A DNA stretch of 16,705 bases from Myxococcota bacterium (GTDB lineage: Bacteria > Myxococcota > JACRCW01). The position numbers were made by a program, and so were the translations under genes. Position 1 is the stretch's first letter; each line of letters starts with the position of its first letter. This document shows positions 5,299 to 14,828 of the stretch, in pieces. The notes below the pieces were generated by a model. The model made no database searches. It saw only the letters and a list, made by a program, of their open reading frames with translations, and was not told where the DNA came from. The stretch lies in NCBI GenBank assembly GCA_040752415.1, contig JBFMGU010000232.1:1-16705 (forward strand), given 5' to 3'.

Positions 5299-7143
5299 CT
5301 ACGGGACGGTCACCGCGCTGGCCGGAAGGATCTGCTTGGACACCCCGGGACCCGCCCAGGACAGCTGCGCCACGGCGTTGAACTCCGCGTCAAAGTAATC
5401 CATCTGCAACACGTGGCCCTCCCCGGCGGTGAGCGGCACGGATGCGCTGGTCTCGGTGGCGGATTGTTCCGCCCAGCGCGTGATGACCTGCTGCCCGTCG
5501 ACGGAGAGGCGCACGCCGTCGTCGGTGTAGGTGAAGAACGTCCAGGTGCCGGAGCTGGGAACCGTCAACGTGGCGGTAAAGCGCGCGCTGAAATGGTCGG
5601 CGGCGAGGGCGGGGTGGGGCTCGTCGCGACCCCAGTTGAAGTTCACCGTCGGCGTCACCTCCGTGATCACCGGCGCGCCAGTCAGGTTCTCGTTGTCGAA
5701 GTACTGCGCGCGGAATCCGTGTTGGGCCCCGTCGTTGGACAGCAGCACGCCCACGGTCTGGGAGGCCGGCGCGGGGTTGTCCTCCTCATCCAGCGCCAGG
5801 AGGGCAAAGTAGTAGACGGAGTCCTGCGGCAGGCTGGAGAGGGAGATGGTCTGCACCGTGCCGGCAGGCTCGGGCGCGTCGGTGGTGAGCGCGGCGGCGA
5901 GGTACCAGTTGGCGCGGGTGATGGGCGCGTTGAAGATGCGCAGGTCGTAGCGGGTGGCGGTGCCCTCGAATCCGTCGTCACCGGGGGCCACGAAGGTCAG
6001 GTCCACCCCGTTGTTGCCCACCCGCTCCAGCGTCAGCGTGTCGACAACGGCGGGCGGCGTGACGTCCTCGGTGTATGGCCCCGCGGAGCTGAGCTGGCTG
6101 GTGGGAATCACCGTGGCCACCGGGTTGCCCACGGTTGCCCAGGCGAGTCTCACGTCCGCCTGCTGGGTGTACTCCACGTACTCCAGGCGGATGCGCACGG
6201 GACGGTCCTCCTGGAAGGCAAACGGGGCCGTCCCGTCGTTGGTCGCATTGTGGGTCCACTGGTTGATGAGCAGCCGCCCGTCCACCCAGAGCCGTGCGCC
6301 GTTGTTGCTCTGCACATTCAGGGAATACACGCCGGTGGTGGGAGCCCACACGTGGCCCATCCAACGCACCGTGAAGTTGTCGGCGGGCACGCCCGTTGCG
6401 GGGACGGAGACGCCCCAGTCAAAATCGACGTCGGGGTCCACCCCCTGCAGCTGCAGTGAATCGAAGGAGGTCCCGGCGTAGTACCAGGCCGCCAGCCCGT
6501 CCCCCACCGGCAACCCCGACGACGAGCTGGACGACGAGCTGGACGACGACGAGCTGGACGACGACGTGCTGGATGACGACGAGCTGGACGATGACGACGC
6601 GCCGGAGGTCGACGAGCTCGAGGAGCTGGAGCCGGTGGACGCGCTGCTGCTGGTAGGAGACGAGCTGACCGCGGCCGAGCTGCTGGTGGTGGTACCGCTG
6701 CTGGTGGCGCTCGCGGAGGATGACGTCGCGGAGGTGCTGGTGCCGCTGGTGATCCCACCGGATGATGACGTGGCGTTGTTGGACGTGGACGAGCTGGTGC
6801 TGGTGGAGCCGACGGTGCTGGCAGCGGAGGAGGAACTGGCGGAGGTGGCGGAGCCGCTGTTTGGGGCGGAAGTGGTGGTGCCCACTCCCGACGAGGAGGA
6901 ATGGCTGGAACCGCCCAGGCTGCTGCTGTGCGCTGCGCCGCTGCTGGTCCCGCCCAGCACCGCCTCGCGACACCGGCCATCCGCACACGTCATGCCGCTG
7001 CCGCAGTCCGCGTCGGCGTTGCACAGGCGCACGCAGCGGTTGCCCTCCTGGACCTCGTTGTCGGCGCATTCCAGGCACGCGGTGGCACCCACCAGGGTCC
7101 ACGCCATCACGGCTGGCAGCGCCACTTTCCGGATCGTGTCCAC
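5299..7143 (-). CDS. Lipoprotein: Cys-rich N-terminus, Ser/Thr-rich linker, PA14, FN3-like domain, PA14 (about 614 aa)
   Basis: GTG 7143 gives signal MDTIRKVALPAVMAWTLVGATA-C. PA14 signatures GLAAWYY..VDFDWG..DNFTVRWMG and GFRAQYF..VNFNWG..DHFSARF..TDDGVRL. FN3-like segment APGDDG..GTATRYDLR..YYFALLALDE. The ORF track starts at 7236, so the start is inferred. Confidence 0.85.
   Translation of the reverse strand: MDTIRKVALPAVMAWTLVGATACLECADNEVQEGNRCVRLCNADADCGSGMTCADGRCREAVLGGTSSGAAHSSSLGGSSHSSSSGVGTTTSAPNSGSATSASSSSAASTVGSTSTSSSTSNNATSSSGGITSGTSTSATSSSASATSSGTTTSSSAAVSSSPTSSSASTGSSSSSSSTSGASSSSSSSSSSTSSSSSSSSSSSSSSSSGLPVGDGLAAWYYAGTSFDSLQLQGVDPDVDFDWGVSVPATGVPADNFTVRWMGHVWAPTTGVYSLNVQSNNGARLWVDGRLLINQWTHNATNDGTAPFAFQEDRPVRIRLEYVEYTQQADVRLAWATVGNPVATVIPTSQLSSAGPYTEDVTPPAVVDTLTLERVGNNGVDLTFVAPGDDGFEGTATRYDLRIFNAPITRANWYLAAALTTDAPEPAGTVQTISLSSLPQDSVYYFALLALDEEDNPAPASQTVGVLLSNDGAQHGFRAQYFDNENLTGAPVITEVTPTVNFNWGRDEPHPALAADHFSARFTATLTVPSSGTWTFFTYTDDGVRLSVDGQQVITRWAEQSATETSASVPLTAGEGHVLQMDYFDAEFNAVAQLSWAGPGVSKQILPASAVTVP
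6518..6955 (-). repeat. Low-complexity poly-Ser/Thr coding tract with short tandem repeats
   Basis: Plus strand (GAC)2-3-GAGCTG units are repeated at about 6518-6600. The tract encodes roughly 140 aa dominated by S/T, including an uninterrupted poly-Ser run. Confidence 0.9.
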
Positions 7144-7149
7144 GTCGAG

Positions 7150-7155
7150 AGCATA
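7150..7155 (-). promoter_or_regulatory. Putative -10 box of a leaderless transcript
   Basis: Minus strand reads TATGCT-ctcgac-GTG: a TANNNT hexamer 6 nt before the inferred start at 7143, with no SD. No convincing -35 box. Confidence 0.4.
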
Positions 7156-7234
7156 GCGCGCGCAGCGAACGGCGTCTCGGAGCAGTGGGAAAACGTCTCC
7201 GGGGGACGCGGCACGGTTCACCCGCCCCCCGGCC

Positions 7235-9100
7235 ATGGCCTACACCTGCCGCGTGGGACGACGTCACGCCTGGGCCACCGCTGCGCTGGCCTTCCTCATC
7301 TACCTCGCCACCCTGCAGCCGTCGGTGGTGGGTGGCGACGCCGGGGAGCTGATGGACGCCGCGCTCACCGGCGGCGTTGCGCATCCTCCCGGCTATCCGC
7401 TCTACACGCTCCTGCTCCGCCTGTTTGCCGCCCTGCCCGGGTTGGACGTGGGCGTGCGGATGAACCTGCTCTCCGCGCTGCTTGGTGCACTCGCCTGCGG
7501 ATTGCTCGCGGAGGCGGTGACCACGGTGTCACGAGCGCCCTGGGCTGGCGTGTTGGCGGGCGGAATGTTCGCATTGAGCCACCGCGTGTGGCCCCATGCG
7601 ACGAGCGCGGAGGTGTTCGCGCTGAACAACATGCTCACGGCGGCGTTGCTTGCCCTTGCGGCGCGCTATGCGGAGCACGCCTCTTTCCGCACGGTGGCGT
7701 TGACGGCGTTCTGCGCGGGACTGGCGCTGGCGAATCATCACACCAGCATCTTTGTCGTCATTCCGGTCCTTGGCTGGATGGGCCGGGCCTTTCCGCGGGC
7801 CCTGCTGCTGCTGCCGTTGGGCCTCATTCCCTACGTGTACCTGCCCCTCGCTGCGCGCAGTGCCGCCGCGGTCACCTGGGGCGATCCGAGCACGCTCACG
7901 GGGCTCGTCGAGCACGTGCTGCGACGGGAATACGGCACCTTCCAGCTCGTCAGTGCGCCGCTCGGTGAGGCCGAGACGCTGCGCGCGTTGGGCTTCTTCC
8001 TCACCGACACGGTGCGCGGTGTTCTCGGGGTGGGCGTGGTGTTCGCGGTGCTCGCCATGCGCCAGCGTCGGACCTGGTGCCGCGTGGTGGCCGGCGCCCT
8101 GCTGATCGACGTGCTGGTGTTCCATTCCCTGGTGAACATGCCGCTGGAACCGGCACTGCTCCGGGGCGTGCAGGCGCGCTTCTACCAGCTTCCGCTGCTG
8201 CTGCTCCTGGCGTTGGCCGGCGTGGGCTTCGCCCGTCTTCGCCGGGGTTCGGCGCCGGTGGCGGTGGCTCTGGTCGTGATCCAGGGGGCGCTCAACCTGG
8301 GCGACGTGTTGCGTCACCGTGGGCGCGTCGTCGAGGAATACGGACGGAGCATCCTGCGTGCCGCGCCGCCCGACGCCATTGTGCTCACGCGTGGAGATCT
8401 CATCACCAACAGCGTTCGCTACCTGCAGGCGGCGGAAGGCCTCCGCGGTGACGTGCGCGTGGTGGACCAGGAGATCCTCAGCCGCACCTGGATGCGCTAC
8501 GCGGCCCAGTTCCCCGACGTCACCTTCCCCGGCACGCATTACCACCCGCGCGAACCGGGTGGGTTCACCATGGCGCAGTTCGTGGCTGCCAACCTGCCGC
8601 GCCATCCCATCGTGGTGTGCGGCGGGTTCAAGGAGGGGGACAGCTCCGTCCCCGGTCTGCTGCAGCAGTGGCCCCTGGGAATCTGCAAACGTCTCCATCC
8701 TCCCGACGTCAGCGTGGACTTCCACGCCTGGCTCGTCGAGAGCGAGCAGGCCCTGCCGCCCGTGCCATCCGGGCCGTTCTCCGACGAGAGCTGGGAGCAG
8801 GTGGTGCTCCAGGACGCGTTGGAGGCGCGTCACGCGCGCGGCTTCCTCGTGCTCACCCACCCGTCGCTGCCCGTCGACACCGCCACGCGCAACACCCTCG
8901 CGGTGCGATTGCTGGAGGAAGCGGCCCAGGATCCGCGCGCCGCCCCGCACGTGCACAAGAACCTTGGGATTGCCCTCAGCCGCCTGGGCACGCCCGAGGC
9001 CCACGAGCGCATGAAGGCGGAATTCCGACGCTACTTGCAGCGCGCGCCCGCCCAGGACCCCGAGATCCCCGCCATCAAACGCGCGATGGGTGACCTCTGA
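7235..9100 (+). CDS. TMEM260/DUF2723-like GT-C glycosyltransferase (putative protein O-mannosyltransferase), 621 aa
   Basis: PSVVGGDAGEL..GVAHPPGYPLY (7319-7405), AEVFALNN, GLALANHHT, PYVYLPL, TWGD, LRREYGTFQL and RGDL..NSVRY. Polytopic N-terminal half, soluble C-terminal half and a TPR-like end (HKNLGIAL..EFRRYLQRAP). Alternative start GTG 7253. Confidence 0.9.
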   Translation: MAYTCRVGRRHAWATAALAFLIYLATLQPSVVGGDAGELMDAALTGGVAHPPGYPLYTLLLRLFAALPGLDVGVRMNLLSALLGALACGLLAEAVTTVSRAPWAGVLAGGMFALSHRVWPHATSAEVFALNNMLTAALLALAARYAEHASFRTVALTAFCAGLALANHHTSIFVVIPVLGWMGRAFPRALLLLPLGLIPYVYLPLAARSAAAVTWGDPSTLTGLVEHVLRREYGTFQLVSAPLGEAETLRALGFFLTDTVRGVLGVGVVFAVLAMRQRRTWCRVVAGALLIDVLVFHSLVNMPLEPALLRGVQARFYQLPLLLLLALAGVGFARLRRGSAPVAVALVVIQGALNLGDVLRHRGRVVEEYGRSILRAAPPDAIVLTRGDLITNSVRYLQAAEGLRGDVRVVDQEILSRTWMRYAAQFPDVTFPGTHYHPREPGGFTMAQFVAANLPRHPIVVCGGFKEGDSSVPGLLQQWPLGICKRLHPPDVSVDFHAWLVESEQALPPVPSGPFSDESWEQVVLQDALEARHARGFLVLTHPSLPVDTATRNTLAVRLLEEAAQDPRAAPHVHKNLGIALSRLGTPEAHERMKAEFRRYLQRAPAQDPEIPAIKRAMGDL

Positions 9101-9123
9101 CACACGCGTTCCGGCCGCGGTGC

Positions 9124-9424
9124 GCTAAGGACGTGGCCAGAAGTTCTTCACACACGGAGGAGTCCCGGTGAGCCCGGACAGCCCGAGCCAAAGCGGTATT
9201 TCAGACCGCACTCCCAAAGGTGCGGGCGCCGCAGGTGCGCTTTCATCAGAGTGCCCGCACCGCGGTTGCTCGTCGGGAAAATCTGCGTGCCGGCTTCTCC
9301 GCCCAATGGGATGGGCGCGGCCGGCACCTTGGGAGCGCGGTCTGGAATACCGCTTTGGAGCGAGCGGGTCGGGCTCAGCCGGAGTCTTCCCAGATGTGAA
9401 GGAACTTCTGGCCAGGTACTTAGC
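9124..9424. mobile_element. 301-bp non-coding element with about 100-bp imperfect terminal inverted repeats (MITE-like or structured RNA)
   Basis: 9124-9146 GCTAAGGACGTGGCCAGAAGTTC matches the reverse complement of 9402-9424 (GCTAAGTACCTGGCCAGAAGTTC) at 21/23. A second block, CCAAAGCGGTATTtCAGACCGCaCTCCCAA (9188-9217), matches the reverse complement of 9329-9358 at 28/30. The inverted repeat is certain; mobility is inferred. Confidence 0.6.
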
Positions 9425-9461
9425 TTAGGGCGGGAGATCCGTGCATTTCCGAGGTGAAGCC

Positions 9462-12400
9462 ATGTTGCGTGGGCTGGGTGTTGTGACGGTGATGGTGGTG
9501 TTGAGCGTGGTGCCGGGCGAGGTGCGCGCGGCGTCGAGTTGCGCGGGTTACTGCGGAGCCAACGCGGGTTCCTGTTGGTGTGACGACGCGTGTTTCAATT
9601 ACAACGACTGCTGCAGCGACGTCCGCACGACCTGCTACGTCCCCGCCATTGGCTCGGTGACTCCCACGCACACCCCGACCCAGGGTGCCCCCATCACCAT
9701 CGCGGGAGTGAAGTTTGGCCCCGGGGGCACGGAGAACTGCCGCTCGCGGGTGGCGTTGTCGACGGCGTCGGCGGACAGCCGCGAGTGCTCCATCACTTCG
9801 TGGACCGAAACGAGCATCCGGTGCACCGTCCCGCCCGGCGTGGGCACGGATTACGCCCTCGTCGTAAGGAATCGCTGGTGCAACGAAGGGACCTCCCCCC
9901 AGCGCTTCTCCTACGACGCGCCGGACATCACCGGCATCGTCCCCAGCACCGTGCCCACCACCGGACAGGTCATCACCATCACGGGCTCCAGTTTTGGCTT
10001 GGACGGCGTCCTGCTCCTGGACGGCGAGAGCGTCCCCGCTGCTTCCTGGACCCACGACCAGCTTCTCGTCGACGTGCCGGAGGGCGTGGGCGCGTATCAC
10101 GAGCTGGAGCTGGAGGTCGGTGGACAGCGCAGCAACGTGGAGACGTTCGCGTATGCGCCGCCGCACATCGACATCGTCAGCCCCACGGATCTCAGCAACC
10201 AGGCCCCCACGGTCATCACCATCCAGGGAACGGACTTTGGCCGCAGCGGTGCCACCGTGACGGTGGGCGGCAGCCCCTGTCTCGTCGAGACGCAGGGCCA
10301 CGAGAGCATCACCTGCACGGCTCCGCCCCAGCCGCCGGGAACCAACGCCGAGGTGCGCGTGACCGCGGGGGAACAGGTCAGCAATGGGGTGGCGGTTGGC
10401 TTTGGGCGTCCGCGGATCACCGCCATCTCTCCGGCGAGCGGCACCACGGCGGGCGGAACCATCATCACGCTCACCGGCAGCGGTTTCACTCCCCAATCCA
10501 CCGTGTCCATCAACGGCACGGACTGCCCGCGCACCGGGACCCCGCCCTCCAACCAGATCCTCTGCATCACGCCCGAGGGAGAAGGCCCCACCGAGGTGCG
10601 CGTGGTCACCAACGGCGTCGTCAGTGATCCCCAGGCGTGGGCGCGCGCCGCTCCGAGTCTGGGTGTCATCACGCCGCAAGGCGGAGCCACCGCCGGCGGA
10701 ACGCCGATCACCATCACCGGAGACAGCTTTGGTGCTTCCCCCACCGCCACCGTCGGCGGCGCGAGCTGCCTCGTGACGCAGGGCGGCCACACGCGAATCA
10801 TCTGCGAGCTGCCCGCGGGGCAGGGGGCCACCGCTGACGTCGTGGTGCGGCGCCAGGATGGGACGGTGAGCCAACCCGCCCTCTACCCATACGCTCCCCC
10901 CAGCATCAGCGACATCACGCCCACGACGGGCGCTGCATCCGGCGGAACGCCGCTGACGCTCACCGGGACCAACTTTGGCGTGAGCCCGGTGGTGATCATG
11001 GGCGGGAGCCTGTGCCCGGTGGTGTCGCGGGATCACACGCGGGTGACGTGCACCACGCCGGGTGGAAGCGGTGATGTCACCGTGCAGCTCCTCGCCGGCG
11101 ACAATCCTCCTGCCACCGCGCAGATCCCGTTCCAGTACGAGGGGCCGGGCATCAGCGGTGTGACTCCGCAGGCAGGTGCCACGGCGGGAGGCATCACCAT
11201 CACCATCGAGGGCACGTCGCTGGGGAACACGGCGCTTGCCAGGGTGGGTGGCTCCACGTGCCCCATCATCGACGTCACGGCCGCGCGCGTGCGCTGCGTG
11301 CTCCCGGCGGGTCAGGGCCTGGATCAGCCCGTGGTCCTGACCGACAGTGGTGGCGAACTGACCGCACCGTTCCCCTATGACTACGCTAAACCCACGGTGA
11401 CCATGGTCGAGCCCGCGACGGGGGGCACCGCGGGCGGGACGGTCCTCACCATCTCCGGCTCCAACTTCGGCACCGCGGGTGGTTCGGTGGAGGTGGGCGG
11501 TCGGGCCTGCATGCTGAGCTCCCAGACTCACGGCGAGATCCGCTGCATGACTCCGCCGGGCGAAGGTGCGGATGTTCCGGTGGTGGTGACCGTTGCGGGT
11601 CAGCAGGCGGCGCCCGAGCGCTTCGACTACCGGCCGCCCGATCTCCAGGTGGTGTCTCCGATGGATGTCATGCGCACCGCGGGTGGCGGCGTGATCACCC
11701 TGTCGGGTAGGGACTTCGGGTTGTCGCCGCAGGTCACGGTGGGCGCGGCGCCCTGTCCCATCACCTCTGCGTCCCACAGCAACATCCTCTGCATCCTTCC
11801 CGCGGGAGAAGGCAGCGTTCCCGCCCGCGTCACGGCGGGAGGACAGCAGAGCAATGAACTGCTCTTCTTCTACGGTCCACCCGTCATCTCCGGGATCACG
11901 CCGACCGCCGGCACCTCCGGCACGCAGCCCATCACCATCATCGGCGACAACTTTGGCCTCGACGCGACGGTCTCCTTTGGCGGTGGGGAATGCGTGGTCA
12001 CCAACCAGACACATACCGAGGTGGAGTGTTATCCGCCCGCGGGAGAGGGAACCGCGCCGGTCAGGGTCATCGCAGGCGGGCTTCCGTCCCTGCCCTTCCA
12101 GGCCAGCTACGCGGCGCCTCTCCTCGACGGGGTGAGCCCCGACCACGGTCCCACCTCCGGCACGGTGATCACGCTCCACGGCTCCAACTTCGGGCTCGCC
12201 CCGTCGGTCACCGTGGGCTCGTCGGAGTGCTCCATCCAGGACCGGACCCATGACACGGTCATCTGCAGCGTGCCCGTTGGCGCGGGAACGGGTCTGCCGG
12301 TGCGCCTCACCGTCGGCGGACAAACCAGCGGGACCGCGCTCTTCGACTACGACCCGCCCGCCATCACGGGTGTGACGCCGGTCAGCGTGCCCACGCGCGG

Positions 12401-14828
12401 CACCACGATCACCATCGTCGGCAGCAGCTTCGGCGCTTCGGCACCGTCGGTGCTCTACGGGGAATCCGCCTGCCCCGTCGTCAGCAGCGATCACAACCGC
12501 ATCCTGTGCAACGCTCCGGAGGGAACGGGAGCTCCCGAGCTCGTCGTCAGGGTAGCGTCGCAATCGACCACCTTCCTCCTGCCCTACACGCCTCCGTACC
12601 TGGAATCGCTGACGCCCACGGAAGTTCCAGCGGGGGGCAACATCCCGCTGACCATCAGCGGCACCAACTTCGGCCGCGGCTCCGCGCAGGTGACGGTGGG
12701 AGGTCAGCCTTGTCCCGTGCTCACCCTCGACCACGAGCGCATCACGTGCACGGTTCCCGCGGGCGCGGGCCCGGCCGGGGTGCAGGTCCGCGTGAGCAAC
12801 CAGGTGAGCAACACGCTGCCGTTGACGTATGACACGCCATACATCGAGGGCATCTCGCCCGCCGTGGTGCCAACGCGCGGCGCGGTGATCACGCTGACCG
12901 GTCGGAACTTCGGTGCTTCTGGATCGGTGACCGTCGACGGGGCCGCGTGCCCGGTGCTCACCTACGCCACCTCCCGCGTCACCTGCACGGCGCCGGAAGG
13001 CGTGGGACGCGACAACTCCGTCCTGCTCATCACCGCAACGCAGACGAGCAACACCGCGCTGCTGCAACGCGCCGCGCCCGTGGCGTTGTCGGTCTCACCG
13101 CAAGCCATCCCCGCCGCCGGCGGAATTCCGATCACGATCATGGGCCAGGACTTTGGCGCCGGCTCCGCCGTCGTCGACGTGAACGGCAGCACCTGCCCGG
13201 TGCAGTCCGTTGATCACGAGGAGATCACGTGCCTTGCGCCGCCACGCCCCGTGGATGCCGCGTTGCTGCGCGTGAGCGTCGCGCAACAGGGCAGCAATGC
13301 GATCAGCGTTCCCTACGCGTTGCCGCTGGTGGCGTCGGTGACGCCGGGGCAATTGAGCGAGCTCGGTGGCGCCATCCTCATCGAGGGCAGCGGTTTCGGT
13401 CCGGGTGTCGTTGTCATGGTGGACGGGGTGGCGTGCCCCATCATCTCCATGCGCGACAACGAGATCCTGTGCCGTGCCCCCGCAGCCAGCGGCGCTTCGG
13501 AGGTGACGGTGGCGCTTGGCGCAACGGTCAGCCCGCCGGTGAACTTGCCGCGCAGCGGCGCGTGTGGCGGGTCCCTGGCCGAAGGCGACCCCTGTGACGA
13601 CGGAAACGTTTGCACCGGCCTCGGCCACTGCGAAAACGGCGTCTGTCGCGGCGCGCCGCCGGAGCGTGAAGGCGAGGCCTGCGACAACGGCAGCTTCTGC
13701 GCCGGAGCCGGCGTGTGCCAGAGCGGCGCGTGTGTGGCTCCCGCCGAGCGCGACACGCTGGCCTGTGACGACGGAAACCGGTGCACGCTGGAAGACGTGT
13801 GCACCGCCGGAGAGTGCGTTGGCTCGTTGTCCGACTCCGTTCCCGGGTGTTGCGGCAGCGACGTCGAATGCGGGGCAGGCAGCCGATGCGAGAACGGTGC
13901 GTGCGTTGCGTTGGACCCGCTCGGCACCGCCTGCGCGGACGGCGCCACCTGCGCCAGCGGCGTCTGTGTCGACGGTGTCTGTTGTGAGTCGGACTGCACC
14001 GGCGTGTGTGAGCAGTGCAATCGTCCGGGGCAGGAAGGGTTCTGTGTGGCCGCGGCTCCTGGAGCGCCGGTGGGAACGCGTCCCTCCTGCCGCGGGAACG
14101 GCGTCTGCGCCGGCACGTGTGACGGGGTGCGGACCGGTTGTGTCTTCCCGGACTCGCAGGTGGTGTGCGCCGCGCCGGAGTGTCTCGGCGAGAGTGTGGT
14201 TGGCGAGGGAACGTGCAATGGCGGAGGAGACTGCGTGACGCCGTCGCCGGCTCCGTGCGCACCCTACGCGTGCGCGGCGGGTGGGACCTGCTTCACCGGC
14301 TGCGTCGACAACGGCCACTGTGCCAGCGGCTTTGTGTGCGTGGGGGGATTCTGCACGCGTCCCGCGGAGGACGCGGGAACGCCTGATGCTGGTGAGGACG
14401 CAGGACCGGCCGACGCGAGCGTGGCGTCCGATGCAGCGACCTCCGATGCCGCTTCCGGCAACGACGCCGGCACCACCAGCGACGACGCCGGCATCACGGA
14501 CGCTGGAGGAGCGGGCGACGCGGCGCCCGACCATGACGCTGCCGCGGAAACCCCCGATGCGGCCGCCGACGACGGCGGTGAGGGACGCGATGGTGCCGTG
14601 AGCCGCGATGCCAGCGTGGATGGCGACGCAGCCCAGCCGCAGCGGGATGCGGGCGCGCGGGATGCCAGCGACGCGCACGACGCCGCCGCCGGCGCTGGCA
14701 ACGACGGTGGTGACGACGACGATTCGGATTCGTCCGTCTGCGCGTGCGCGCGACCGGTGACGGGTGTGCCCTGGTTGGCGCTGACGCTCGTGGCGGCGGG
14801 CGCGCTGGTGAGGCGTCGCCGGCGCTAG
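9462..14828 (+). CDS. Large cell-surface protein: signal peptide, somatomedin-B-like domain, 16 IPT/TIG domains, Cys-rich repeats, DAG-rich linker, MYXO-CTERM-like anchor (1788 aa)
   Basis: SD GAGGTG at 9451-9456 before ATG 9462; signal ends VRA-A. 8-Cys SMB pattern at 9540-9635. Sixteen repeats of about 80 aa, P-x-[IL]-xx-[VI]-[ST]-P..[IL]T[IL]xGxxFG..C..C..P, at 9642-13550. CDDGNxCT-type repeats at 13563-14354. C-terminus VCACARPVTGVPWLALTLVAAGALVRRRRR. Confidence 0.93.
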   Translation: MLRGLGVVTVMVVLSVVPGEVRAASSCAGYCGANAGSCWCDDACFNYNDCCSDVRTTCYVPAIGSVTPTHTPTQGAPITIAGVKFGPGGTENCRSRVALSTASADSRECSITSWTETSIRCTVPPGVGTDYALVVRNRWCNEGTSPQRFSYDAPDITGIVPSTVPTTGQVITITGSSFGLDGVLLLDGESVPAASWTHDQLLVDVPEGVGAYHELELEVGGQRSNVETFAYAPPHIDIVSPTDLSNQAPTVITIQGTDFGRSGATVTVGGSPCLVETQGHESITCTAPPQPPGTNAEVRVTAGEQVSNGVAVGFGRPRITAISPASGTTAGGTIITLTGSGFTPQSTVSINGTDCPRTGTPPSNQILCITPEGEGPTEVRVVTNGVVSDPQAWARAAPSLGVITPQGGATAGGTPITITGDSFGASPTATVGGASCLVTQGGHTRIICELPAGQGATADVVVRRQDGTVSQPALYPYAPPSISDITPTTGAASGGTPLTLTGTNFGVSPVVIMGGSLCPVVSRDHTRVTCTTPGGSGDVTVQLLAGDNPPATAQIPFQYEGPGISGVTPQAGATAGGITITIEGTSLGNTALARVGGSTCPIIDVTAARVRCVLPAGQGLDQPVVLTDSGGELTAPFPYDYAKPTVTMVEPATGGTAGGTVLTISGSNFGTAGGSVEVGGRACMLSSQTHGEIRCMTPPGEGADVPVVVTVAGQQAAPERFDYRPPDLQVVSPMDVMRTAGGGVITLSGRDFGLSPQVTVGAAPCPITSASHSNILCILPAGEGSVPARVTAGGQQSNELLFFYGPPVISGITPTAGTSGTQPITIIGDNFGLDATVSFGGGECVVTNQTHTEVECYPPAGEGTAPVRVIAGGLPSLPFQASYAAPLLDGVSPDHGPTSGTVITLHGSNFGLAPSVTVGSSECSIQDRTHDTVICSVPVGAGTGLPVRLTVGGQTSGTALFDYDPPAITGVTPVSVPTRGTTITIVGSSFGASAPSVLYGESACPVVSSDHNRILCNAPEGTGAPELVVRVASQSTTFLLPYTPPYLESLTPTEVPAGGNIPLTISGTNFGRGSAQVTVGGQPCPVLTLDHERITCTVPAGAGPAGVQVRVSNQVSNTLPLTYDTPYIEGISPAVVPTRGAVITLTGRNFGASGSVTVDGAACPVLTYATSRVTCTAPEGVGRDNSVLLITATQTSNTALLQRAAPVALSVSPQAIPAAGGIPITIMGQDFGAGSAVVDVNGSTCPVQSVDHEEITCLAPPRPVDAALLRVSVAQQGSNAISVPYALPLVASVTPGQLSELGGAILIEGSGFGPGVVVMVDGVACPIISMRDNEILCRAPAASGASEVTVALGATVSPPVNLPRSGACGGSLAEGDPCDDGNVCTGLGHCENGVCRGAPPEREGEACDNGSFCAGAGVCQSGACVAPAERDTLACDDGNRCTLEDVCTAGECVGSLSDSVPGCCGSDVECGAGSRCENGACVALDPLGTACADGATCASGVCVDGVCCESDCTGVCEQCNRPGQEGFCVAAAPGAPVGTRPSCRGNGVCAGTCDGVRTGCVFPDSQVVCAAPECLGESVVGEGTCNGGGDCVTPSPAPCAPYACAAGGTCFTGCVDNGHCASGFVCVGGFCTRPAEDAGTPDAGEDAGPADASVASDAATSDAASGNDAGTTSDDAGITDAGGAGDAAPDHDAAAETPDAAADDGGEGRDGAVSRDASVDGDAAQPQRDAGARDASDAHDAAAGAGNDGGDDDDSDSSVCACARPVTGVPWLALTLVAAGALVRRRRR
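9642..13550 (+). repeat. Sixteen tandem IPT/TIG domain repeats (about 240-250 bp each, diverged at DNA level)
   Basis: Manually delimited at recurring PxI/LxxV/IxP starts and TIxGxxFG cores. Repeat 2 lacks the Cys pair; repeat 1 has four Cys. Confidence 0.88.

Follow-up and report, generated by a model that had tools for sequence, protein, structure and literature searches.

A full-length bacterial relative of TMEM260 encoded next to a TIG-repeat protein in a Myxococcota genome

Introduction

TMEM260 is a human disease gene, linked to SHDRA syndrome. The enzyme resides in the endoplasmic reticulum (ER), uses dolichyl phosphate mannose (Dol-P-Man) as its donor and targets IPT domains, a specificity established in 2023 (PMC10214176) and followed by the structure reported in 2026 (9RQL, 9RQM and 9RQN; 10.64898/2026.03.17.711096). 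Its chain runs from a GT-C membrane module through a Rossmann-like domain (residues 416-564) to a TPR domain (565-706), and it modifies T822 of PLXNB2 within '...GGGIRITILG...', bound as an extended A-B strand peptide (10.64898/2026.03.17.711096). The sequon has been given as P-x6-P-x3-P-x2-GG-x3-T, in which variation is possible at the -8 Pro and towards the N-terminus (10.64898/2026.09.21.753134). Here we describe a bacterial relative, P0001, the 621-aa product of the open reading frame at positions 7235-9100 (+) of a 16,705-nucleotide contig from a Myxococcota bacterium (JBFMGU010000232.1, assembly GCA_040752415.1; the window), and compare its locus, which also encodes the TIG-repeat protein P0122, with these described systems.

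A second described system is PMT/POMT (GT39; Pmt1-Pmt2, Pmt4). Its enzymes are the closest to the membrane module of P0001 in structure and share with P0001 the first-loop Asp and, presumably, a lipid-phosphate-mannose donor. PMT/POMT differ from P0001 in that the latter gives no MIR match and carries a Rossmann-like/TPR region in that place. Bacterial relatives of TMEM260 have been noted in passing as 'distant homologs in bacteria' (PMC10214176). The words bacteria and prokaryote are absent from the main text of the cryo-EM preprint (10.64898/2026.03.17.711096); none of the titles and abstracts listed by literature searches dealt with relatives of TMEM260 in bacteria or with what they modify, and the only paper recovered on 'DUF2723' was the 2023 PNAS paper.

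Results

P0001 resembles human TMEM260 along its full length

The first-pass annotation of the window, made from the sequence alone, had proposed that P0001 resembles TMEM260 throughout and not just over its N-terminal DUF2723 signature. Searching PDB chain sequences with phmmer returned human TMEM260 (9rql_A) as one strong match (E 3.4e-80, 273 bits), in which residues 13-610 of P0001 and 30-683 of the human protein form a single alignment stretch. When used alone, the N-terminal 200 aa matched at E 1.5e-33 and the C-terminal 261 aa at E 5.6e-25 (human residues 417-683), thereby excluding a similarity confined to the first ~200 aa. BLASTP against shark TMEM260 gave 215/657 identities (33%, E 8e-91), covering residues 22-614 of 621. 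The proposed likeness thus holds for the GT-C module, the Rossmann-like domain and the TPR tail alike.

It is borne out region by region as well: global alignments to six named eukaryotic homologues gave identities of 35-41% for the membrane part (aa 1-360), 36-41% for the Rossmann-like part (aa 361-510) and 27-35% for the TPR part (aa 511-621). These comparators are homologues recovered by our searches and named via clusters. Identity to eukaryotes was 32-35% in a separate alignment. Eight eukaryotes were named in all, namely white shark, a fish, Andalucia godoyi, Entosiphon, Papus, Rigifila, Diphylleia and Hemimastix; the shark and fish records are titled 'transmembrane protein 260', and that of Andalucia godoyi 'Transmembrane protein 260 homolog'. 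Among Pfam signatures, only the N-terminal PF11028 ('TMEM260-like', residues 35-182) exceeded its cut-off (100.8 bits vs 24.2, E 1e-28). The precomputed domain annotation additionally lists PF28495.1, and an NCBIfam scan of P0001 gave no match.

All eight motif strings put forward in the annotation are present in the translation, in the order it had stated: TWGD (214-217) with LRREYGTF (229-236); PPDAIVLTRGDL (378-389) with NSVRY (392-396), EGLRGD (401-406) and VDQE (410-413); FPGTHYHP (431-438); VCGGFKEGD (461-469); WPLGIC (479-484); SWEQV (519-523); HKNLGIA (574-580); and FRRYLQRAPAQDP (597-609). The human chain shows TWGD, LREEYGTF, RGDL, NSLRY, EGLRPD, VDQE, FPG, VCIGIHEGD, WPWGSC, SWESV, HKNYAIA and FRLYSQKAPN-DP in the same order, an agreement far beyond chance. 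P0001 is an additional member of a known enzyme family and, judging from its sequence, an intact bacterial member of orthologue type.

Activity-critical residues and predicted fold are retained

In the human enzyme, D52 and H67 of the sugar-recognition motif, R264 and Y267 of the donor-loading loop and R355 of transmembrane helix 10 engage Dol-P-Man, and D441 of the Rossmann-like domain acts as catalytic base; D52A, H67A, R264A, Y267A and D441A abolish activity, whilst R355A keeps ~20% (10.64898/2026.03.17.711096). The alignment, in which human chain numbering equals native numbering (D52 lies within GGDSGE), places D35, H50, R230, Y233, R315 and D388 of P0001 at these six positions. All six are invariant between P0001 and the eight named eukaryotes, and across 49 bacterial full-length rows D35, H50, R230 and R315 do not vary and Y233 and D388 reach at least 90% conservation. 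The catalytic R-G-D is kept as R386-G387-D388, with G387 and D388 invariant against the eukaryotes, and both structural cysteines are retained (C462 and C484, human C522 and C544). Human R439, G440 and E466, which contact the acceptor peptide (10.64898/2026.03.17.711096), correspond to R386, G387 and E413.

In an AlphaFold2 model of P0001, built on a 49-row alignment (pLDDT 94.5, pTM 0.93), the membrane module is helical and is followed by an alpha/beta domain with five strands (382-385, 408-411, 459-462, 476-481 and 484-488) and by a tail of helices; the model appears to agree with the human structure as described in print. Structural comparison by VIA-align gave GT-C matches at Z 23-27, among them yeast Pmt1-Pmt2 (27.0), Pmt4 (26.7) and ArnT (26.4), as well as matches of TPR proteins to residues 493-621 (Z 9-11). 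The GT-C matches found by Foldseek were ALG12, ALG9, ArnT, Pmt4 and STT3/PglB, with query-normalised TM-scores of 0.33-0.49. Neither structure library, the Foldseek copy of which ends at 2026-04-08, listed 9RQL, 9RQM or 9RQN among its matches. In the Pfam scan, PMT_2 stayed below threshold (17.1 bits vs a cut-off of 26.1) and no PMT or MIR family was matched. P0001 is smaller than its human counterpart by ~90 aa, and its loops are shorter.

The next gene encodes a TIG-repeat protein with an acceptor-type motif

The gene immediately after P0001, on the same strand, encodes P0122. Behind its signal peptide come a head rich in Cys and 16 IPT/TIG repeats; a Cys-rich stalk and an acidic stretch then lead to a C-terminus made of Cys, a transmembrane helix and RRRRR. 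PF01833 matches 16 stretches (E 2.2e-189) and NCBIfam NF058597 (choice-of-anchor Z repeat) matches ten; the ATG at 9462 is probably a likelier start than the GTG. A Thr at the acceptor position, within [ILV]-T-[ILV]-x-G-x-x-[FL], occurs in 15/16 repeats, and the stricter pattern P-x6-P-x6-G-G-x3-[TS] fits 6/16. In the other TIG frames of the source genome these figures are 24/63 and 8/63 domains, respectively.

Two further features of P0122 were observed. Its head (9441-9640) is a short Cys-rich module, and its tail (14736-14828) reads Cys-Ala-Cys-Ala-Arg-Pro, a hydrophobic helix and RRRRR, reminiscent of a sorting signal of the MYXO-CTERM type; NCBIfam reported no such model.

Enzyme and TIG genes are adjacent in at least two lineages

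The source genome (11.0 Mb in 520 contigs, 96.8% complete, with the window as its entire 16.7-kb contig C149) contains 12 open frames with TIG matches and three PF11028 genes, of which only that of P0001 is full-length. The two paralogues, on contigs C212 and C157, align to P0001 over just residues 10-421 and 22-389, and neither contig has a TIG match, the TIG neighbour thus occurring only at the full-length gene. Assuming nine to ten thousand genes, we roughly estimate that direct adjacency would arise by chance in a few cases in a thousand.

We also surveyed the flanks of 173 other loci, 171 of which sum to ~1.58 Mb of flank. The genome loci among them are 80 of 594 stretches with a P0001 relative in GTDB species genomes. 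A C-domain profile, passed by 103/171 loci, was too loose a criterion for full length, which was therefore defined as tblastn coverage to query residue 600 or beyond; this gave 29 full-length loci besides the window, 19 of them from genomes, and several of the surveyed full-length loci have short flanks (<1.5 kb). A first TIG profile, seeded on the 16 repeats of P0122 alone, found no TIG in the 80 genome loci; a broader profile gave three metagenome cases, and a third round none further. These three (L097, L099 and L109) are the only ones of the 173 loci with TIG frames, and in all of them the frame adjoins a full-length TMEM260-like gene. Pfam confirmed two, three and six TIG domains in L097, L099 and L109, respectively. 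In L097 the TIG gene follows the enzyme gene in the same orientation, the arrangement seen in the window, and in L099 and L109 it is convergent; the acceptor motif is present in 2/3 TIG domains of L099 and 6/6 of L109. The three enzymes form one clade (SH-aLRT 95), distinct from that of P0001, and so count with the window as two independent instances of adjacency, not four. Bacterial TMEM260-type enzymes thus adjoin proteins with the same domain and the same acceptor motif in at least two lineages.

These observations make the 16 IPT/TIG repeats of P0122 a candidate substrate of P0001, a proposal to which we give roughly even weight. Several points weigh against it. Adjacency is the exception, being found at 3/29 other full-length loci, all of one clade; the other 26/29 have no TIG gene in the available flanks, some of them short, and among the 19 full-length genome loci, which include the nearest named relatives, the count is 0/19. 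TIG domains occur in 14/15 genomes with a full-length enzyme as against 52/60 relatives without a full-length match, so that co-occurrence across genomes is uninformative, TIG domains being common without the enzyme. The TIG profile was seeded on P0122 and may favour this protein in the motif counts, and because the sequon coincides in part with residues behind the TIG fold, a match to it is partly expected. In the tail of P0001, only one of the four residues of the human Asn ladder is kept (N576 for N642), N602, N638 and N680 being replaced by T541, H572 and A606, and human R652 is T586. Conservation of TMEM260 falls towards the TPR domain even among species (10.64898/2026.03.17.711096), and we therefore treat the Asn ladder as a detail of the human lineage and not as family-defining. 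Finally, a repeat element lies between the two genes, leaving their co-transcription unproven.

The strongest competing explanation is that P0001 is an active TMEM260-type transferase with other exported clients, such as the upstream Ser-rich PA14 protein P0002 or a broad set, or with a sugar other than mannose, and that its TIG neighbour is coincidental. We regard this as a serious possibility, though one behind a role for P0122: the 26 loci lacking a TIG gene, the genomic presence of TIG domains irrespective of the enzyme and the mostly changed TPR contact residues are all as it would predict, but it must also accommodate an adjacency that is rare by chance with some 12 TIG frames in 11 Mb, that recurs in a second clade and that comes with enrichment of the acceptor motif in the neighbouring TIG proteins (15/16, 6/6 and 2/3) over the rest of the source genome. 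If the pairing is a coincidence, P0001 simply adds to a bacterial family that is large and uncharacterised. If it is real, it would provide a candidate substrate for this family and a simple system for studying sequon recognition, and would place the origin of the glycosylation pathway before eukaryotes.

Some loci of the survey show additional features. The TIG protein of L109 (11968-16875, -) also has 22 ephrin-receptor-like repeats and Cys-rich modules of TNFR and NCD3G type, an ectodomain set that is strikingly 'animal-like' for a prokaryote-style contig. In L099, a 1145-aa frame (7226-10660, -) lies directly upstream of the TIG frame, in-frame with it and separated by one stop codon; it has a weak, sub-threshold PMT_2 match (20.8 bits) and may encode a second GT-C enzyme. 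The Rokubacteria metagenome-assembled genome (MAG) G065, from which locus L005 derives, carries 29 of its 30 TIG matches in a 15-kb TIG-repeat cluster (C9:65033-80029), outside the 10-kb flanks of L005, whose gene is a close full-length relative.

P0001 belongs to a broad bacterial family

A word-indexed protein search with P0001 returned 469 proteins at E<=1e-10, and the 120 listed of these show 36-46% identity over 85-99% of its length. Named matches among those listed are 'DUF2723 domain-containing protein' entries of Longimicrobiales, Gemmatimonadaceae, Limnocylindrales, Acidobacteria and Archangium. An exhaustive search of 50% representatives gave 15,089 matches at E<=1e-3, of which 980 reached E<=1e-30. 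In 5.8 billion proteins the nearest match has 46% identity, so no close orthologue was found. The 19 of the 80 genome loci whose match reaches residue 600 or beyond come from Myxococcales, Polyangiaceae, Bdellovibrionota, Acidobacteria, Rokubacteria and Gemmatimonadaceae MAGs. Searching 60 relatives from its own phylum with P0001 gave no full-length match, and in the sole genome of the same family the best match covers residues 11-492 at 36%.

The bacterial full-length proteins share with P0001 the same architecture, 36-47% identity over 85-99% of the length and a clade in trees, and differ from it in lacking a TIG neighbour at all 19 genome loci. N-terminal-only DUF2723 proteins, including the two paralogues, share the PF11028 membrane module. 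P0001 is thus ordinary among bacteria, full-length relatives being common in several phyla. Nor are these relatives distant from TMEM260: they retain its architecture in full, along with all of the catalytic residues tested.

In one relative, L100 (1153-5514, +), the reading frame of the TMEM260-like gene extends without a stop for ~2.4 kb ahead of the matching part; the extension could be an N-terminal fusion or a plain open frame in GC-rich DNA.

The P0001 clade is separate from eukaryotic TMEM260

The first-pass annotation had further placed P0001 in a bacterial clade close to eukaryotic TMEM260, with implications for a myxobacterial origin of the gene or its transfer from a eukaryote into a bacterium. 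The trees did not bear out such closeness. In a FastTree phylogeny of 257 rows, 242 of them bacterial, the eight named eukaryotes fall within a 15-row clan (support 0.985) and P0001 is placed in the opposite half, ranking ~59th of the 242 bacterial rows by tree distance to the eukaryotic node. In a quick IQ-TREE search (LG+C20 PMSF, 74 rows), P0001 clusters with records of Myxococcales, Polyangiaceae, Gemmatimonadaceae and Rokubacteria as one set of 13 rows (SH-aLRT 97), the eukaryotes being elsewhere. This tree was poorly searched, as one constrained to join the trio of P0001 with the eukaryotes scored a better likelihood, and an approximately unbiased (AU) test could not separate the quick tree from the constrained one (p 0.42 and 0.58), so that a grouping with eukaryotes was not rejected.

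A longer search under LG+F+G4, with the long rows L020, L055, L067, L036 and P0238 removed, ran for ~160 iterations without convergence and provides no bootstrap values (best log-likelihood -81902.6). Its best tree unites P0001 with P0040/P0123 and P0069/L002 (Myxococcales), next to a Rokubacteria group and a Myxococcales/Gemmatimonadaceae group; the eukaryotes and metagenome row L110 form one clan, to which P0167 is the nearest bacterial row. Regrafting next to the eukaryotes cost 97 log-likelihood units for P0001 alone (AU p 3e-50), 70 for its 5-row clade (p 0.001), 67 for its 10-row clade (p 8e-6) and 34 for its 15-row clade (p 0.0015), with losses of 28 for the control P0178 + L008 (p 0.029) and 13 for the control P0066 (p 0.06); these p-values overstate the case, as they come from a model without a mixture and from regrafted trees that had not been re-optimised. 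The backbone is weak, with very short branches. An outgroup of 12 N-terminal-only DUF2723 proteins (L021-L094 loci) gave no single root, its two groups attaching at different points and touching the eukaryotic clan at neither; this reflects either a noisy tree or the repeated loss or replacement of lumenal domains.

Within the limits of this weak backbone and unconverged search, P0001 belongs to a separate bacterial clade whose regrafting is rejected at p<=0.0015, and recent transfer from a eukaryote into the source genome is unlikely. That the clade is specially close to eukaryotes through a myxobacterial donor, or that the gene is of eukaryotic origin, we consider very improbable: an identity to eukaryotes (32-35%) little below the best bacterial values (36-47%), the grouping left standing by the AU test of the poorly searched trees and the short backbone branches might be read that way, but the eukaryotes form their own clan, P0001 sits in a well-supported bacterial clade and ranks ~59th of 242 by distance to their node, regrafting is rejected and GC content is even across the window (0.66-0.72). 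The gene belongs to a broad bacterial family and is not a recent eukaryotic import. In our reading, P0001 is an ordinary member of a broad bacterial radiation, and the eukaryotes make up a single lineage nested in this radiation or alongside it; on the sequences at hand, a myxobacterial origin of the eukaryotic gene can be neither shown nor excluded.

By NCBI taxonomy, the named eukaryotes represent Discoba (Jakobida, Euglenida, Kinetoplastea), CRuMs, Hemimastigophora and vertebrates. The full-length homologues P0239, P0244, P0257, P0175, P0250 and P0205 come from Euglenida, Kinetoplastea, Jakobida, CRuMs (two genera) and Hemimastigophora, mostly from transcriptomes in which bacterial contamination is not excluded. 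This spread, wider than the earlier stated 'conserved in metazoans' (PMC10214176), points to an early eukaryotic origin of TMEM260 homologues.

Discussion

From the comparison with the human enzyme, with which it has in common the collinear order of its three domains, we infer that P0001 is most likely a periplasmic protein O-mannosyltransferase in activity, sugar and site. As an inner-membrane GT-C glycosyltransferase it would expose the D35 loop and its C-terminal domains to the periplasm, in contrast to the ER location of TMEM260, and its membrane module would bind a bacterial polyprenyl-phosphate sugar, most likely mannose, in place of Dol-P-Man. The Rossmann-like and TPR domains would hold an unfolded, Sec-exported polypeptide, allowing D388 to deprotonate the hydroxyl of an acceptor Thr or Ser. 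In P0122, the strand-B Thr of the TIG repeats (I-T-I/L-x-G) would be modified on emergence from the Sec translocon. Because the human enzyme uses extended chains and P0122 carries a signal peptide of Sec type, the natural model is that the sugar is added in the course of translocation or immediately afterwards, while the TIG domains are still unfolded. Such a reaction would be the counterpart of what human TMEM260 does to the IPT domains of plexins, MET and RON. Modification of a lipid or glycan by P0001, in the manner of ArnT and the arabinosyltransferases, seems very improbable: the membrane module is as ArnT-like as it is PMT-like (Z 26.4 vs 27.0), but the Rossmann-like and TPR domains align with human ones that bind the acceptor peptide, and the catalytic base and all three peptide contacts have counterparts.

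What is new here is the pairing of P0001 with a TIG-repeat protein, which we offer as a testable lead. It suggests, short of proof, that the pairing of enzyme and target is older than eukaryotes. We tentatively raise a further and rather doubtful possibility, that IPT/TIG O-mannosylation arose in bacteria as an enzyme and target pair, consisting of a TMEM260-type transferase and a secreted TIG-repeat protein with a P-x6-P-x6-GG-x3-T sequon, and that the ancestor of eukaryotes inherited both; homologues are present in Metazoa, Discoba, CRuMs and Hemimastigophora. Were this so, the modification of human plexins, MET and RON would be a survival of a bacterial system for surface-protein maturation, and the P0001-P0122 gene pair would offer a tractable bacterial model.

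Neighbouring features

Coordinates of the features of the window are collected in Table 1. The ~340-bp gap between the P0001 and P0122 genes is filled by a repeat with nested inverted arms (9156-9229 / 9317-9390 and 9093-9146 / 9402-9455), which gave 147 blastn high-scoring segment pairs on many contigs of the source genome. Among the pairs listed are almost complete copies at 86-91% identity, along with weaker matches on the opposite strand at 71-81%. An Rfam scan of the repeat gave no match, and the element looks like a miniature inverted-repeat transposable element or an interspersed repeat of the repetitive extragenic palindromic type.

Table 1. Features of the window and the evidence for each
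Feature	Position	Strand	Evidence or remark
TMEM260-type GT-C glycosyltransferase gene (P0001), 621 aa	7235..9100	+	PF11028 (E 1e-28), human TMEM260 alignment, AlphaFold2 model
Membrane GT-C module, aa 1-360	7235..8314	+	D35, H50, R230, Y233 and R315 by human alignment
Putative periplasmic Rossmann-like domain, aa 361-510	8315..8764	+	TRGD motif with D388; human alignment; five modelled strands
TPR-like helical tail, aa 511-621	8765..9097	+	K575 and N576 = human K641 and N642; TPR structural matches
Secreted surface protein (P0122), 1795 aa from GTG	9441..14828	+	PF01833, NF058597; candidate substrate
16 TIG repeats, aa 68-1379, period ~81 aa	9642..13577	+	TIG profile
Palindromic interspersed repeat in the P0001-P0122 gap	9093..9455		Inverted arms, blastn copies
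Divergent neighbouring gene (P0002): secreted, Ser-rich, two PA14 domains	5299..7236	-	PF07691, 2 stretches (E 1.2e-50)

Upstream, the divergent P0002 has 645 aa and a long Ser/Thr-rich low-complexity stretch. Its called ATG shares two bases with that of P0001, which makes it probable that either start lies further in. A possible lipoprotein-type signal (...LVGATAC) begins near residue 38 of P0002.

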